Below, piece after piece: positions 37,676 through 41,853 of a stretch of DNA of 64,000 bases. Within the stretch, counting starts at the first letter, position 1. Every line of letters starts with the position of its first letter. A program made the translations under genes and the position numbers. The DNA comes from an uncultured Lachnospiraceae bacterium (lineage in GTDB: Bacteria > Bacillota > Clostridia > Lachnospirales > Lachnospiraceae). The notes below the pieces were generated by a model that was not told the DNA's origin, made no database searches, and was given only the letters and a program-made list of their open reading frames with translations. Where the stretch lies: assembly GCA_910588875.1 (NCBI GenBank), contig CAJURT010000019.1, positions 281-64,280 on the forward strand, in the 5' to 3' direction.

Positions 37676-39085
37676 TTACATTCCTGCCTCATCCGCCAGG
37701 GCCGCCTGGATCATGATGGCACACTCGATCCGCTTTTTCTGCATCTCGCAGCCAATATCGTAAGCATCCGTGATGCTGCCATGGAAATTGTAGGAATTGG
37801 CGGCACAGCCGCCACTGCAGTAGAAACGCGCAAAGCAATCCCGGCACTTCTCCTTGGCATATACATTGCACAGCTTGAATTCGTCCCGGATGTCCGTCCG
37901 GACGATCCCCTCATCCACGCTTCCCATCCGGAAATCCTCCTGCCCTACAAACTGATGGCACGGATAAAAATCCCCCCAGGGCGTCACTGCCAAGTACTCG
38001 GTACCTGACCCGCATCCCGACAGGCGCTTGGCCACACAGGGTCCCTGGTTTAAGTCAATATTAAAATGGAAAAAGTGGAACCCCTTGCCCTCTTTCTTCC
38101 TTTTAATATACTCCAAAGCCAATTTATCATACTCTTCCATGATCTGCGGCAAATCTTCCTCCCGGATGGCATACTCTTCCTCCGGCGATGCCACCACCGG
38201 TTCTATGGACATCTGCTCAAACCCCAAATCTGCAAAATGCTTCACGTCCTCGCAAAAATCCAGGTTATGGCGGGTAAATGTCCCCCGCACATAATAGTCT
38301 TTCCCGGCACGGGACCGGGCAAACCTCTGAAATTTGGGGACAATGATATCATAGCTGCTTTTCCTGCCGTTGCGGGTGGGCCTCATAAAATCGTTGACCT
38401 CCCGCCGGCCGTCCAGGCTGAGCACCACATTTCCCATCTCCCGGTTGCAGAACTCCATCACCTCATCATCCAGGAGCACCCCGTTGGTCGTCAGGGTAAA
38501 GCGGAAACGTTTGCCATGCGCCTCCTCCTGCGACCTGCCATACTCCACCAGCCGCTTCACCACATCCCAATTCATCAGCGGTTCACCGCCAAAAAAATCC
38601 ACCTCCAGGTTACGCCGGTTCCCGGAATTGGCAATCAAAAAGTCAAGGGCTTTTTTCCCCACCTCAAAACTCATCAGAGCCCTGCGGCCATGGTACTCCC
38701 CCTCCTCGGCGAAGCAATACTTACAACCCAAATTGCAATCATGGGCAACATGCAGGCACAAGGCCTTCACCACAGTCTTCCGCTTCTTAAAGTCAGCCAC
38801 ATATTCCTGATAAATATCCTTGGTAAACAGTTCCCCCTCATCTACCAGGTACTGGATCTCTTCCAGGGCCTCATCTATGTCCCGGGCGCCCCAGCCCTGT
38901 CCCGCCAGCTGGCCACGCACCTGGCCACACAATTTTTCCGGCAAAGGTTTTGGCTTTTCCAGTTCCCCAACCTCCTGGGATAACAGGGCAATCGCCTCGT
39001 ACACGATATCATCTACCACATGCACGGAACCGCTCGCCACATCCATCACAATATTGTAGCCGTTATTTCTATATTGATGAATCAC
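37676..39085 (-). CDS. scfB: radical SAM/SPASM thioether cross-link-forming SCIFF peptide maturase
   Basis: CxxxCxxC radical SAM motif (CNLGCKYCFAEEG). C-terminal SPASM cysteines (CGSGTEYLAVTPWGDFYPCHQF, CRDCFARFYCSGGCAA). Immediately downstream of the SCIFF precursor gene. Start set to GTG 39085 (VIHQYRNNGYNIVMDVASGSVHVVDD, AAGGAG 7 nt upstream), which matches the usual N-terminus of this family. The track ATG is at 39130. Confidence 0.9.
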   Translation of the reverse strand: MIHQYRNNGYNIVMDVASGSVHVVDDIVYEAIALLSQEVGELEKPKPLPEKLCGQVRGQLAGQGWGARDIDEALEEIQYLVDEGELFTKDIYQEYVADFKKRKTVVKALCLHVAHDCNLGCKYCFAEEGEYHGRRALMSFEVGKKALDFLIANSGNRRNLEVDFFGGEPLMNWDVVKRLVEYGRSQEEAHGKRFRFTLTTNGVLLDDEVMEFCNREMGNVVLSLDGRREVNDFMRPTRNGRKSSYDIIVPKFQRFARSRAGKDYYVRGTFTRHNLDFCEDVKHFADLGFEQMSIEPVVASPEEEYAIREEDLPQIMEEYDKLALEYIKRKKEGKGFHFFHFNIDLNQGPCVAKRLSGCGSGTEYLAVTPWGDFYPCHQFVGQEDFRMGSVDEGIVRTDIRDEFKLCNVYAKEKCRDCFARFYCSGGCAANSYNFHGSITDAYDIGCEMQKKRIECAIMIQAALADEAGM

Positions 39086-39134
39086 CAGTATTCTCCTTTT
39101 TCCTCCAAATACGGCAAAAATCCCGCTCATAACG

Positions 39135-39170
39135 AAAAACCCCTACAATCCTGGACCATAGGGGTCTTTT
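39135..39170 (-). terminator. hairpin plus U-run between scfA and scfB (partial terminator/attenuator)
   Basis: The minus strand reads ACCCCTATGGTCCAGGATTGTAGGGGT followed by TTTTCG. Confidence 0.6.
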
Positions 39171-39200
39171 CATGCTCTTCAAGTATTCATCTGGCGCGGA

Positions 39201-39347
39201 CTAACGGTTTCCATTCTCGCAGCTTTGGTTGCCTACTGTACAGGAAGTCTTGCATGCAGACTGGCAGGATGTCTGGCACTCGCCGCAGCCGCCCTTCTTC
39301 ATGGATTCCTTCAAGGTCTTATTATTCAAGGTTTTTATGTGTTTCAT
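39201..39347 (-). CDS. scfA: six-cysteine ranthipeptide precursor SCIFF
   Basis: Too short for the ORF track. My translation is MKHIKTLNNKTLKESMKKGGCGECQTSCQSACKTSCTVGNQSCENGNR (48 aa), a near-consensus SCIFF sequence. A GGAGGA RBS lies upstream. Confidence 0.9.
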   Translation of the reverse strand: MKHIKTLNNKTLKESMKKGGCGECQTSCQSACKTSCTVGNQSCENGNR

Positions 39348-39383
39348 AGCACTTTCGTCCTCCTGTCATTTTTATCTGCCGCG

Positions 39384-39412
39384 ATTATATCATATGTGAT
39401 TGGTTACCGCAA
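39384..39412 (-). promoter_or_regulatory. candidate sigma-A promoter of scfA
   Basis: On the minus strand: TTGCGG (39407-39412), 17 nt, TATAAT (39384-39389), with an A-rich tract upstream. Confidence 0.5.
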
Positions 39413-39423
39413 GTTTTTTATTT
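39389..39423. repeat. 35-bp direct repeat, copy A (putative att site, left island boundary)
   Basis: ATCATATGTGATTGGTTACCGCAAGTTTTTTATTT. Identical at 34 of 35 positions to 44257-44291. Confidence 0.85.
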
Positions 39424-39581
39424 TCAATATTTGAAACCCGAAACTCGATTTGGGGAATCGGGCGGCCTGCCCTGGTTCTGTTCTGCAGCCTTCCATATTA
39501 ATGCAGGATAGAATGGCCATTCCTGCATCCAGATTGCAAAAACCTCTTGAAACCCATTTCTGGATATGGTATATTGATAGC

Positions 39582-39682
39582 AGAAGGGGAAAGCCAGAGA
39601 AGCGGCCTACCCTCAAATGATTAAAGCGTACCCTTTACAGGGCAGCCGTCAACTATTGGGAGTAGTTGGCGGCTATTTCTTT
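39582..39682 (+). ncRNA. candidate antisense (antitoxin) sRNA, copy 1
   Basis: Promoter TTGAAA (39547-39552), 17 nt, TGgTATATT (-10 at 39570-39575). Hairpins at 39631-39642 and 39645-39673, followed by TATTTCTTT. Complementary to the 3' end and 3' UTR of the peptide mRNA. The transcript ends are predictions. Confidence 0.5.
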
Positions 39683-39762
39683 CCCCTGAAGATTGTATAG
39701 CACAACCCAACCAGGGCAACCATAAGTATACAAAACTGAAACAAATCAGCATATGTAACCAT
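39673..39762 (-). CDS. 29-aa hydrophobic peptide, candidate type I toxin (holin-like toxin type)
   Basis: AGAAAGGAGGG SD, 8 nt, then ATG. My translation is MVTYADLFQFCILMVALVGLCYTIFRGKK followed by a stop. Own promoter TTGTCG (39876-39881), 17 nt, TGcTACAAT (39853-39858). Confidence 0.6.
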   Translation of the reverse strand: MVTYADLFQFCILMVALVGLCYTIFRGKK

Positions 39763-39963
39763 TGGCAATCCCTCCTTTCTGACCTCCGGAGGGTTAGCCC
39801 CTCCGTGTAAGGAGGGTAAGTCGCCTTTTGCTCTCTGACTTTCCGTATCTGGATTGTAGCATAGCTTCCCTATTTCGACAATATATCTTTTTTAACATTT
39901 ATCCACTCAACAAAATAGTGATTTAAACAATGCGAAAGAAAAAATGGAGCAGATAGTAAACAT

Positions 39964-40313
39964 TTACGCACAAGCAGATACGCATGGCCAGAAATGCCTC
40001 TGCTCCCGCATCACCCCGTAGTAATACCGCAGGTCCATGCCTGTGATATCCTCAATCCGCTTCCCCAAGAACTCAAGCATATTGTGGATTTCCTGCTTAT
40101 TCTGTTTAAACGTGTTATCCTGGCGGTTTACTGCTTTTTTCGATGCAATAAACCTCCGGACTATAGCTTCATCCCCGTTCTCTCCCCTGGAAACCAAATC
40201 CGTGCATTGGTCGCATACCTCCTTCCCATGAAAACTTTTAAATGCTCCAGCTGCCCTTCCTCCAGGTGCGGCACCATCTCATTGACTACGTTCTCCAATA
40301 TCTTCTCAACCAT
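39964..40313 (-). pseudogene. tyrosine recombinase/integrase remnant (N-terminal ~115 codons, frameshifted and truncated)
   Basis: MVEKILENVVNEMVPHLEEGQLEHLK (after an AGGAGGG RBS) continues after a frameshift as LVSRGENGDEAIVRRFIASKKAVNRQDNTFKQNKQEIHNMLEFLGKRIEDITGMDLRYYYGVMREQRH. This resembles the N-terminal SAM-like domain of Firmicute mobile-element integrases. No catalytic domain follows. Confidence 0.6.
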
Positions 40314-40420
40314 AAAAAATAGCCCTCCTTCCATATTTATTTTAGGATAGGATGGCCATTCCTGCATCCGGATTGCAAAAACCGCTTGAAACCCATTTCT
40401 GGATATGGTATATTGATATC

Positions 40421-40521
40421 AGAAGGGGAAAGCCAGAGAAGCGGCCTACCCTCAACAGTATATGACTTTACCTCTTATGAGGCCAGCCGTCGCTATTGGT
40501 AGTAGCGGCGGCTATTTCTTT
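40421..40521 (+). ncRNA. candidate antisense (antitoxin) sRNA, copy 2
   Basis: Promoter TTGAAA (40386-40391), 17 nt, TGgTATATT (-10 at 40409-40414). Hairpins at 40471-40482 and ~40485-40512, then TATTTCTTT. Confidence 0.5.
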
Positions 40522-40601
40522 CCCCTGAAGATTGTGTAGCACAACCCAACCAGGGCAACGATAAAGATACAAAACTGAAATAAATCAGCATATGTAACCA
40601 T
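40512..40601 (-). CDS. 29-aa hydrophobic peptide, candidate type I toxin, copy 2
   Basis: AGAAAGGAGGG SD, then ATG at 40601. My translation is MVTYADLFQFCIFIVALVGLCYTIFRGKK followed by a stop. Promoter TTGTCG (40716-40721), 17 nt, TACAAT (40693-40698). Confidence 0.6.
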   Translation of the reverse strand: MVTYADLFQFCIFIVALVGLCYTIFRGKK

Positions 40602-40865
40602 CCGCATCACCCTCCTTTCTGACCTCCGGAGGGTTAGCCCCTCCGTGTAAGGAGGGTAAGCCGCCTTTTGCTCTCTGACTTTCCGTATCTGGATTGTAGC
40701 ATATCTTCCCTATTTCGACAATATGCCTTTTCCCATGCAGGGATTTAACCCCGGGCGGGGGAGAGTGGGGATGAAGCCAAAATCCGGATATTTATTGCAT
40801 TGAAAAAGGCGGTCATTCCTGCCTTTTTCTTTTGCAGTAAAGAAGTAAAGAACACGCTATATTGA

Positions 40866-40895
40866 TTGACAATCACAGAGTTATTCCTGTATATT
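40866..40895 (+). promoter_or_regulatory. candidate sigma-A promoter of the island AraC gene
   Basis: TTGACA, 18 nt, TATATT. About 45 nt upstream of the ATG at 40942. Confidence 0.45.
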
Positions 40896-40941
40896 TAATT
40901 CATAAAACAGGCAAAAACCGCAGATATGCAGGTGAACAGAC

Positions 40942-41853
40942 ATGAAAAATATCCATAGCATTGAATTTTATACTGGAAGCAAGGAAGAATTGTTTCCCGA
41001 TTATGAAAAAGATTTTCCCTATATCGCTTCAAGGGCAGAACTTGACAAGTATACAGGACGTTTCGTGCCCTGGCACTGGCACAAGACGGTGGAACTCTTT
41101 TACATGGAAAGCGGCAGTGTTGAATATACTACGCCGGGAGGAAAATTAGTGTTTCCTGCCGGGAGCGGCGGCATGGTAAATTCTAATGTACTCCATATGA
41201 CAAAAGCAATGTCGCAGAGAGAACAGAATATACAGCTGCTTCATATTTTCGATGTTTCCCTGCTTGCCGGGGAACAGGGAAGCAGGATTGAACAAAAATA
41301 TATTGCACCTGTCATAACAGCCCCGCAGCTTGAGGTAATCCCGCTTTTTCCAGGCAATCCAGCAGAAGAAAGGATTTTAAATCTTATTGCCGCATCATTT
41401 CGTTTGTCCGGCGATGAATTTGGGTATGAAATAAAACTGCGGGAAGCCCTGACGGAAATATGGCTAATGTTATTTGAACTATCCCGCCCTATGCGTGAAA
41501 AGAAAGGAGAACATAACAAAAGCAACGATAAAATAAAGCTGATGATGATATACATTCATGAGCATTACGGGGAGAAAATATCTATCCCGGAACTTGCGGC
41601 GGCAGCATACCTGAGCGAAAGAGAATGCTATAGAGTATTTCATGACTGTCTGCACATGACACCCGTAGAGTATATAAAGACATACCGTCTGCAAGCCGCC
41701 TGTCAGATGTTAGCAAATGGACAGAAACCTGTTACCGTTATCAGCCATGACTGCGGTTTAGGAAGCAGCAGTTATTTTGGAAAAGTTTTTCGGGAATACG
41801 CACATTGTTCACCCACAGAATATCGGAGAAAATGGCAGAATCGTGATAGATAA
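40942..41853 (+). CDS. AraC-family transcriptional regulator (cupin plus HTH)
   Basis: 303 aa. WHWHKTVELFYMESG cupin half. C-terminal HTH ISIPELAAAAYLSERECYRVFHDCLHMTPVEYIKTYRLQAA...SSYFGKVFREYAHCSPTEYR. Confidence 0.85.
   Translation: MKNIHSIEFYTGSKEELFPDYEKDFPYIASRAELDKYTGRFVPWHWHKTVELFYMESGSVEYTTPGGKLVFPAGSGGMVNSNVLHMTKAMSQREQNIQLLHIFDVSLLAGEQGSRIEQKYIAPVITAPQLEVIPLFPGNPAEERILNLIAASFRLSGDEFGYEIKLREALTEIWLMLFELSRPMREKKGEHNKSNDKIKLMMIYIHEHYGEKISIPELAAAAYLSERECYRVFHDCLHMTPVEYIKTYRLQAACQMLANGQKPVTVISHDCGLGSSSYFGKVFREYAHCSPTEYRRKWQNRDR

Follow-up and report, generated by a model that had tools for sequence, protein, structure and literature searches.

The 64,000-nucleotide (nt) stretch of DNA analyzed here, hereafter the window, comes from an uncultured Lachnospiraceae bacterium (assembly GCA_910588875.1, contig CAJURT010000019.1, positions 281 to 64,280 of the forward strand) and contains two direct repeats of ~403 base pairs (bp) at 39489-39892 and 40328-40732. 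We propose, with a probability of about 0.85, that each repeat is a complete type I toxin–antitoxin module of the BsrG/TxpA (Hol_Tox) kind, with a dual mode of action like that of bsrG/SR4: an antisense RNA that would both promote the decay of the toxin mRNA and tighten the occlusion of its Shine-Dalgarno (SD) sequence. The 3'-overlapping type I layout recognized in the initial annotation of this stretch is borne out at the level of sequence and comparison: each copy has a short putative toxin open reading frame (ORF) whose 3' end is overlapped by a putative antisense RNA gene, which is convergent to it and has a promoter and a terminator of its own; the predicted promoters, the coding character of the ORF, the terminator and 5' hairpin of the RNA, and the co-occurrence of the two genes in a fixed register emerge from the same data.

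Two copies of a convergent module

A repeat search of the window resolves the repeats into three collinear blocks with 93-97% identity and a spacing of 839-840 nt, pairwise alignment sets their limits, and two diagnostic strings (22 nt and 31 nt) are each found at two places and no more in the 64-kb window, where 0 would be expected. The copies are about 97% identical apart from the terminator stem, the spacer between SD and ATG and, above all, a ~27-nt patch (39617-39643 vs 40456-40484) that differs almost wholly between them. This patch spans the middle hairpin (stem-loop 2, SL2) and linker of the antitoxin RNA, which is also the most variable segment family-wide, and its divergence suggests that modules have recombined with each other or that recognition within each pair is under selection. 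The features of the two copies are as follows.

39770-39891 and 40610-40731: repeat block pair, 97% identity
39498-39616 and 40337-40455: repeat block pair, 94% identity
39668-39767 and 40507-40606: repeat block pair, 93% identity
39489-39892, no strand assigned: direct repeat copy 1, the whole candidate toxin–antitoxin module plus ~58 nt past the antitoxin promoter
39853-39881, minus strand: copy 1 toxin promoter by consensus scan, TTGTCG-17-TGcTACAAT, predicted transcription start site (TSS) about 39846
39578-39846, minus strand: copy 1 predicted toxin mRNA of ~270 nt, comprising an 84-nt leader, the ORF and a 3' untranslated region (UTR) of ~95 nt with a putative 3' end
39811-39844, minus strand: copy 1 D1, the 5' arm of the predicted long-range 5'-3' helix, which contains anti-SD 1
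39811-39816, minus strand: copy 1 anti-SD 1, CCCTCC, within D1
39788-39804, minus strand: copy 1 inner hairpin, GGAGGG(1) at 39799-39804 with CCCTCC(2) at 39788-39793, the predicted anti-anti-SD / anti-SD 2 pair
39770-39777, minus strand: copy 1 SD, AAGGAGGG
39673-39762, minus strand: copy 1 putative toxin ORF of 29 codons, MVTYADLFQFCILMVALVGLCYTIFRGKK, with its stop
39547-39575, plus strand: copy 1 antitoxin promoter by consensus scan, TTGAAA-17-TGgTATATT, predicted TSS about 39582
39582-39684, plus strand: copy 1 predicted antitoxin RNA of ~100 nt, with SL1 at 39586-39614, SL2 at 39631-39642, the terminator SL3 at 39644-39674 and a U-tract at 39675-39684
40328-40732, no strand assigned: direct repeat copy 2, the whole candidate module plus the upstream region and ribosome-binding site (RBS) of a recombinase remnant
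40693-40721, minus strand: copy 2 toxin promoter by consensus scan, TTGTCG-17-TACAAT, predicted TSS about 40686
40417-40686, minus strand: copy 2 predicted toxin mRNA, whose minimum free energy (MFE) fold has the full 27-bp 5'-3' helix
40651-40684, minus strand: copy 2 D1, the 5' arm of the predicted long-range helix, which contains anti-SD 1
40512-40601, minus strand: copy 2 putative toxin ORF of 29 codons, MVTYADLFQFCIFIVALVGLCYTIFRGKK, with its stop; SD at 40610-40617
40386-40414, plus strand: copy 2 antitoxin promoter by consensus scan, TTGAAA-17-TATATT, predicted TSS about 40421
40421-40523, plus strand: copy 2 predicted antitoxin RNA, with SL1 at 40425-40453, SL2 at 40471-40482, the terminator at 40485-40513 and a U-tract at 40514-40523

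The promoters that the initial annotation had placed on the two strands were recovered independently by the consensus scan in both copies, with an extended TG element in 4/4, and the two 29-codon ORFs, the leader, the SD and the two CCCTCC tracts are present as it had them. The layout that it gave for the ~100-nt plus-strand RNA, ending at the toxin stop, also stands: ATTTCTTTCC follows each terminator, the end of the terminator stem falls inside the toxin TAG stop codon itself, and the U-tract covers the last three toxin codons. The Lys/Arg codons of the basic tail of the toxin are thus the complement of the antitoxin U-tract, so that one stretch of DNA serves both genes. As the antitoxin RNA lies entirely within the 3'UTR and last codons of the toxin gene, it would be perfectly complementary to the toxin mRNA.

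The putative toxin peptide

The gathering score of the Pfam model PF16935 Hol_Tox, 23.3 bits, is reached by both peptides (copy 1, 24.0 bits; copy 2, 28.4 bits), in agreement with the resemblance to holin-like toxins proposed earlier. BsrG, whose identity was verified in SPbeta records in which it is annotated as 'phage toxin BsrG', scores 34.5 bits on the same model; TxpA, in the sequence that we take to be its own, also matches it and has the N-terminal motif M-x-T-Y-x-x-L in common with the window peptides. Their architecture (MVTYAD, a 19-residue hydrophobic stretch and RGKK) conforms to the pattern of Hol_Tox, a short single-pass peptide of Firmicutes (about 30-60 residues) that is polar at its N-terminus and basic at its C-terminus, and profile searches with Pfam and NCBIfam gave no Fst match. 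The homologous ORFs from about 75 genome loci have 27-31 codons and a basic tail, and outside the ten codons fixed by the search pattern the pairwise variability at the three codon positions is 0.23, 0.10 and 0.45; hence, the ORF bears a coding signature.

The module had been called unannotated. This is correct for the window ORFs, neither of which is named in the protein collection (that of copy 1 has an unnamed record, that of copy 2 has none), but not for close homologues, which bear the NCBI name 'putative holin-like toxin' (WP_243240557.1 from Roseburia yibonii and a MULTISPECIES Lachnospiraceae entry). The GTG-extended ORF, looked up by exact sequence, has no record, and searches of plasmid and phage collections with the module (blastn) and the peptide (tblastn) yielded nothing useful.

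A family in which the RNA outlasts the toxin ORF

A degenerate DNA pattern of the first ten codons, run against a collection with one genome per species, matched 83 stretches, of which about 75 are true relatives, nearly all from Lachnospiraceae, including Eisenbergiella, Enterocloster, Roseburia, Hungatella, Acetatifactor and Parablautia. A single match on viral contigs (L006, pattern CCCTCCGGAGG...AAGGAGGG) was rejected as due to chance. Taking genomes and gut metagenomes together, the layout is kept in more than 100 homologous modules, and an alignment of 59 distinct ones shows conservation that spans the module from the toxin -35 box to the antitoxin -35 box and collapses beyond. A few members lie on contigs binned as Paludibacteraceae and Selenomonadaceae (L018, L055, L045), the peptide of L045 being identical to that of Roseburia yibonii; these are probably cases of mis-binning, or else of horizontal transfer.

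Peptide and RNA co-occur in a fixed convergent register whichever is used as the search key. An intact opposite-strand ORF with its stop at a fixed offset accompanies 64 of the 68 covariance-model hits in the fetched genome loci, the other 4 having frameshifted or truncated toxins, and the model also found copies that the peptide pattern had missed (L007, L014, L023 and L033). On metagenome contigs, an RNA-only pattern gave 61 distinct evaluable loci; the toxin ORF, counting MYVTY and MNVTY starts, is present in 44 (41 with an SD), while 17 have the RNA without an intact ORF. In these apparent orphan antitoxins (L091, L098, L105, L109, L126, L139 and 11 others), the ORF is deleted, truncated or startless. 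Eight genome loci (L007, L012, L023, L026, L064, L066, L067 and L073) have likewise lost the toxin ORF, its start codon or its promoter and kept the RNA.

The reverse state, in which the RNA is missing beside an intact and expressed toxin, is all but absent. Peptides lacking a convergent RNA had been named beforehand as an observation that would speak against a type I system; the only clear case among the intact evaluable ORFs is L078, a relic that also lacks the promoter and leader, with the divergent or contig-end members L010, L018 and L084 being unscorable in this respect. Thus, the antitoxins outlast the toxins, which is the decay pattern expected for a harmful gene product.

Beyond the main family, two subfamilies, B (L009, L038, L063, L080, L086 and L087) and C (L008 and L070), combine divergent peptides, beginning MVTYADLFQFVIMLCAV... 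and MVTYADLFQFVMMLVAV... respectively, and unrelated convergent RNAs with the identical layout. Subfamily C scores 17.7 bits on Hol_Tox, below the cut-off, and subfamily B has no hit, which places the window clade at the edge of that model.

The putative antitoxin RNA

The plus-strand RNA is predicted to fold into three hairpins: the 5' hairpin SL1 (GGG-AAA-GCC...GGC-CUA-CCC), SL2 and the terminator SL3. In a covariance-model alignment of 75 hits, 87.9% of the cells of SL1 and SL3 are paired (98% in the terminator), 14 of the 22 base pairs show compensatory change, and double-changed cells number 94 against 28.5±4.6 in shuffles, with no shuffle or slid register coming near. SL2 was scored per sequence since it aligns poorly with MAFFT and Infernal (46-58% paired); a hairpin of at least 4 bp abuts the terminator in 35 of 47 modules, with 22 different stems, and its usual loop, UUAC, forms a YUNR motif with the closing base. 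On the plus strand, G-U cells outnumber A-C cells by 121 to 19 overall and by 75 to 0 in the terminator, counts that depend on few inherited positions; this asymmetry indicates that selection for the structure acts on the plus strand, where a plus-strand RNA would have its terminator. The antitoxin promoter (TTGnnn-17-TAnnnT) is kept in 46 of the 47 main-family modules, 42 of them with the extended TG, and the toxin promoter in 39/47, the exceptions having a replaced leader.

The RNA belongs to no Rfam family: a search of both strands of 38500-41500 with 4227 models, among them antitoxin families of the RatA, SR4, RNAII and Sok types, gave no relevant match even at E≤10. The sub-threshold matches to ctRNA_p42d, STnc390, tmRNA and others, which lie outside or across the element, were set aside as terminator or chance matches. 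A 5'-3' closing helix within the antitoxin itself was also considered and dropped, its 3' arm lying beyond the likely termination point. For an anti-SD role in trans of the ACCCUC in SL1, which was likewise considered, the complementarity to the SD amounts to only 5-6 nt.

A predicted long-range helix and a possible switch at the Shine-Dalgarno sequence

The first ~35 nt of the toxin mRNA (GGAAAGUCAGAGAGC...GGCGGCUUACCCUCC) have nearly the same sequence as SL1 of the antitoxin, the two forming an inverted repeat at the ends of the module. The 5' end of the toxin mRNA is hence complementary to the 3' end of the same molecule, the segment that the antitoxin would target. The resulting long-range helix appears in the MFE fold of both copies, at its full 27 bp in copy 2, and 13-28 long-range pairs are expected in each of the 42 modules folded. 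Across the joint alignment, 91% of the cells of its 27 pairs are paired and 11 of the pairs show compensatory change, values that 0 of 500 shuffles reach, and cognate 5'/3' duplexes average -45.1 kcal/mol vs -39.8 kcal/mol for non-cognate ones (permutation p=5e-5).

In the initial annotation, the two CCCTCC tracts were read as a typical translational lock on the SD. Pairing with the SD is indeed predicted, but as part of a nested switch coupled to the long-range helix, which had been overlooked: CCCUCC(1) pairs with the SD and encloses the GGAGGG(1):CCCUCC(2) hairpin. The SD is thereby predicted to be sequestered in the toxin mRNA structure, as the type I class requires. Over the 42 modules, its predicted probability of being unpaired is 0.04 in the nascent or 3'UTR-masked (antitoxin-bound) state vs 0.21 in the free full-length mRNA, with a Wilcoxon p of about 4e-8 for what is a thermodynamic prediction on related sequences.

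We advance the following plausible mechanism. In the nascent toxin mRNA, the upstream CCCTCC would lock the SD. Once the 3'UTR has been made, the 5' end, including this CCCTCC, would pair with the 3' end in the 27-bp helix and the SD would partly open. The antitoxin would probably make first contact through the YUNR-containing SL2 loop and then pair with the 3'UTR, displacing the 5' arm; the freed CCCTCC would re-lock the SD, and the duplex, ~100 bp and perfect, would offer a substrate for RNase III, through which we infer the toxin mRNA to decay. Upon loss of the antitoxin, the peptide would insert into the membrane and harm the cell, which would stabilize the prophages and integrase-bearing elements often found with these modules.

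As regards the helix alone, the same inverted repeat might instead be a feature of the DNA without a role in the mRNA: a site for a recombinase or a regulator, the outcome of gene conversion, or a terminal repeat akin to that of a miniature inverted-repeat transposable element. The arms are homologous and lie beside two similar promoters, the modules are multi-copy and adjoin recombinase genes, and concerted evolution alone would yield the cognate-over-non-cognate signal. This alternative is nevertheless unlikely. In 36 of 40 modules, the toxin-strand duplex is more stable than the opposite-strand control, so that where the arms differ the bias is toward G-U on the toxin mRNA. Folding gives the helix as the MFE solution, the 5'-3' complementarity is retained in the unrelated sequences of subfamilies B and C, conservation continues beyond the repeat as far as the two -35 boxes, and coding constraint acts on the ORF. 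Further, an equivalent helix has been mapped by probing in bsrG mRNA, where nt 1-35 pair with nt 232-262 as helix P1 (PMC3834814).

Relationship to known type I systems

We compared the modules with the 3'-overlapping type I class formed by TxpA/RatA, BsrG/SR4, BsrE/SR5 and YonT/SR6. Both txpA/RatA and bsrG/SR4 had been cited as parallels for the layout; the closest worked-out analogue is bsrG/SR4 rather than txpA/RatA alone. In txpA/RatA of the Bacillus subtilis skin element and in EF3263 of Enterococcus faecalis, an antisense RNA overlaps the toxin 3' end as it does here, and at ~110 nt that of EF3263 is close in size to ours. TxpA, at 59 amino acids (aa), differs from the window peptides; RatA has 222 nt, and we know of no 5'-3' helix or SD switch for txpA. 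The EF3263 system and the 'holin-like toxins' were placed in the TxpA family by Fozo et al. (2010), who also found TxpA-like ORFs in Clostridiales, some annotated as 'holin-like toxin' (PMC2887945), and T1TAdb lists the 3'-overlapping Gram-positive type I families (PMC8594479).

The module shares with bsrG/SR4 of the B. subtilis prophage SPbeta a Hol_Tox toxin, a convergent antitoxin that overlaps the toxin 3' end, linkage to prophages or mobile elements, and a toxin mRNA whose 5' end pairs, in our case by prediction, with the antitoxin-targeted 3' segment. When SR4 binds, bsrG nt 1-33 become single-stranded and the SD helix grows from 4 to 8 bp, so that SR4 inhibits translation besides promoting decay (PMC3834814); the same tightening of SD sequestration by the antitoxin is predicted here. 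Because the folding predictions match the probing of bsrG/SR4 and BsrG hits Hol_Tox, we read the module as one that would work in the same manner. The two systems differ in several respects: the peptide has 29 aa here vs 38 aa in BsrG; the antitoxin is ~100 nt and fully overlapped, whereas SR4 has 183 nt and an SL1 that is not complementary to bsrG mRNA; the 3' arm is the complement of the antitoxin 5' hairpin at the extreme 3' end, whereas bsrG has a terminator, SL4, after P1; and the hosts are Clostridia rather than Bacilli.

Other type I systems are less close. In hok/Sok and aapA/IsoA, the ends of the toxin mRNA also fold together and SD-sequestering hairpins block co-transcriptional translation (PMC6733600, PMC8594479). 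However, their 3' end carries the anti-SD and the long helix keeps the mRNA inert until 3' trimming, whereas the helix here is predicted to sequester an upstream anti-SD and open the SD, which the antitoxin would close; their antitoxin targets the 5' region rather than the 3'UTR, and the peptides are unrelated. Fst/RNAII (par of pAD1) and SprA1/SprA1AS are likewise Firmicute type I systems with convergent transcripts and a shared terminator region, but their peptides are of another family and the RNAs interact elsewhere than in the overlap, namely at 5' repeats or the RBS (PMC8594479).

Weighing the assignment

Several observations weigh against a functional type I module of this kind. The Hol_Tox scores of both window peptides barely exceed the threshold, BLASTP gives no alignment between a window peptide and BsrG, and the only NCBIfam match is a sub-threshold one to PepG1. 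In the window copies, the toxin mRNA has a weak terminator and therefore a 3' end that is itself putative. The predicted opening of the SD is partial, its mean being the 0.21 given above, and in copy 1 a G-to-A change in the 5' arm weakens block B and leaves the SD closed in both states. The statistics come from related sequences with few independent covariation and G-U events, and a DNA inverted repeat evolving in concert could produce part of the signal ascribed to the long-range helix. That both genes are transcribed, that the peptide is toxic, that the SD switches and that RNase III cleaves the duplex are inferences.

One might hence be dealing with an antisense-regulated small membrane protein other than a toxin, namely a regulator or an accessory subunit, with the RNA setting its level. 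There is precedent in YhzE-2, which has an antisense RNA yet is non-toxic, and TxpA itself is non-toxic in E. coli (PMC2887945). We regard this as very unlikely: the one-sided loss of the toxin with retention of the RNA, in the metagenome and genome loci counted above, is what a harmful product predicts, the SD is predicted to be multiply locked, the modules are linked to prophages and integrases, and the peptides have their Pfam family in common with the proven toxins BsrG and TxpA.

That the peptide is a phage holin or lysis-timing factor, with the plus-strand features being merely its 3'UTR and a bidirectional terminator and no antitoxin gene existing, is hardly credible, for although Pfam calls the family 'holin-like' and individual modules lie between terminase and portal genes (L004, a viral contig) or beside phage tail genes (L048), there is no adjacent endolysin, most loci are ordinary chromosomal intergenic sites, as is that of the window, an extended -10 promoter stands at a fixed distance from SL1 in 46 of 47 modules, and the conserved U-G of the terminator would be an A-C mismatch on the toxin strand, the U-tract lying on the plus strand.

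Genomic context and the recombinase remnant

The modules of the window have the following neighbors.

39997-40313, minus strand: tyrosine-recombinase remnant matching aa 1-25 and 30-111 of a 338-aa homologue; frameshifted and devoid of the catalytic domain
39201-39347, minus strand: SCIFF six-cysteine ranthipeptide precursor (TIGR03973, E=1e-25)
37676-39130, minus strand: radical-SAM maturase of SCIFF

The integrase remnant noticed earlier between the two copies is, accordingly, the frameshifted N-terminal third of a tyrosine recombinase, whose intact 338-aa homologue in L048 matches Phage_integrase and its SAM-like domain. Integrases or their remnants stand beside modules in about ten loci, other modules being in ordinary intergenic sites. 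The order module, tyrosine-recombinase remnant, module recurs in L033 (330-1280, with divergent peptides) and in L023 (270-2310, with the flanking copies in inverted orientation and a truncated third copy); hence, the arrangement in the window is not a simple private duplication. A 57-nt inverted repeat with 81% complementarity, between 40130-40186 in the remnant and 40757-40813 just outside copy 2, indicates that a second, inverted recombinase scrap flanks copy 2, which hints at past rearrangements. In L048 (1-6535), the intact recombinase lies directly downstream of the module and is followed by small convergent ORFs and phage baseplate and tail genes, a gene order that points to a prophage end or possibly an invertible tail-fibre region.

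The modules of the window are flanked by the SCIFF peptide and its radical-SAM maturase on one side and by an AraC regulator on the other, an arrangement also found in two other assemblies. No endolysin or lysin gene, and thus no lysis cassette of the kind that accompanies a holin, was found beside the modules in the window (SCIFF, remnant and AraC regulator) or in L004 (terminase and portal). SCIFF and its maturase are directly downstream of module copy 1 on the same strand, with SecDF beyond, and read-through from the weakly terminated toxin mRNA would enter the SCIFF operon. In another lineage, a module lies just upstream of SCIFF in the opposite orientation (L049, 3013-3560), and in L071 a module lies 1.8 kb beyond SecDF; the SCIFF/SecDF neighborhood may be a recurrent landing site.

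A more far-reaching idea is that these modules are more than passive addiction cassettes: the SL2 patch would be a diversifying specificity determinant that lets paralogous pairs coexist without cross-talk, the modules would travel with a small integrase cassette or be its recombination substrates, and in that case their terminal inverted repeat could serve both as RNA helix and as DNA site. We hold this combination to be quite unlikely.

Biological implications

Type I systems are known in detail chiefly from Bacilli, enterococci, staphylococci, enterobacteria, Helicobacter and C. difficile. A literature search of full texts found no characterized type I system in Lachnospiraceae. Every design principle of the module has a precedent, and the current understanding of such systems is not overturned; the kind is already known, and what is added here is the extent of the family and an uncatalogued antitoxin RNA.

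Against this background, the modules would constitute a coherent and widespread type I family in Lachnospiraceae, a dominant gut clade, with representatives in Eisenbergiella, Enterocloster, Roseburia, Hungatella and others, and they define an antitoxin RNA family that Rfam lacks. The results suggest that the Hol_Tox group inherited the bsrG/SR4 design, a 5'-3' helix combined with an allosteric SD lock, from its ancestor, and that this design is no peculiarity of Bacillus. In practical terms, the covariance model and the peptide pattern permit the annotation of genes that ORF callers miss, and the modules mark prophage- and integrase-linked DNA. They might also furnish stabilization or counter-selection parts for genetics in these hard-to-manipulate anaerobes.

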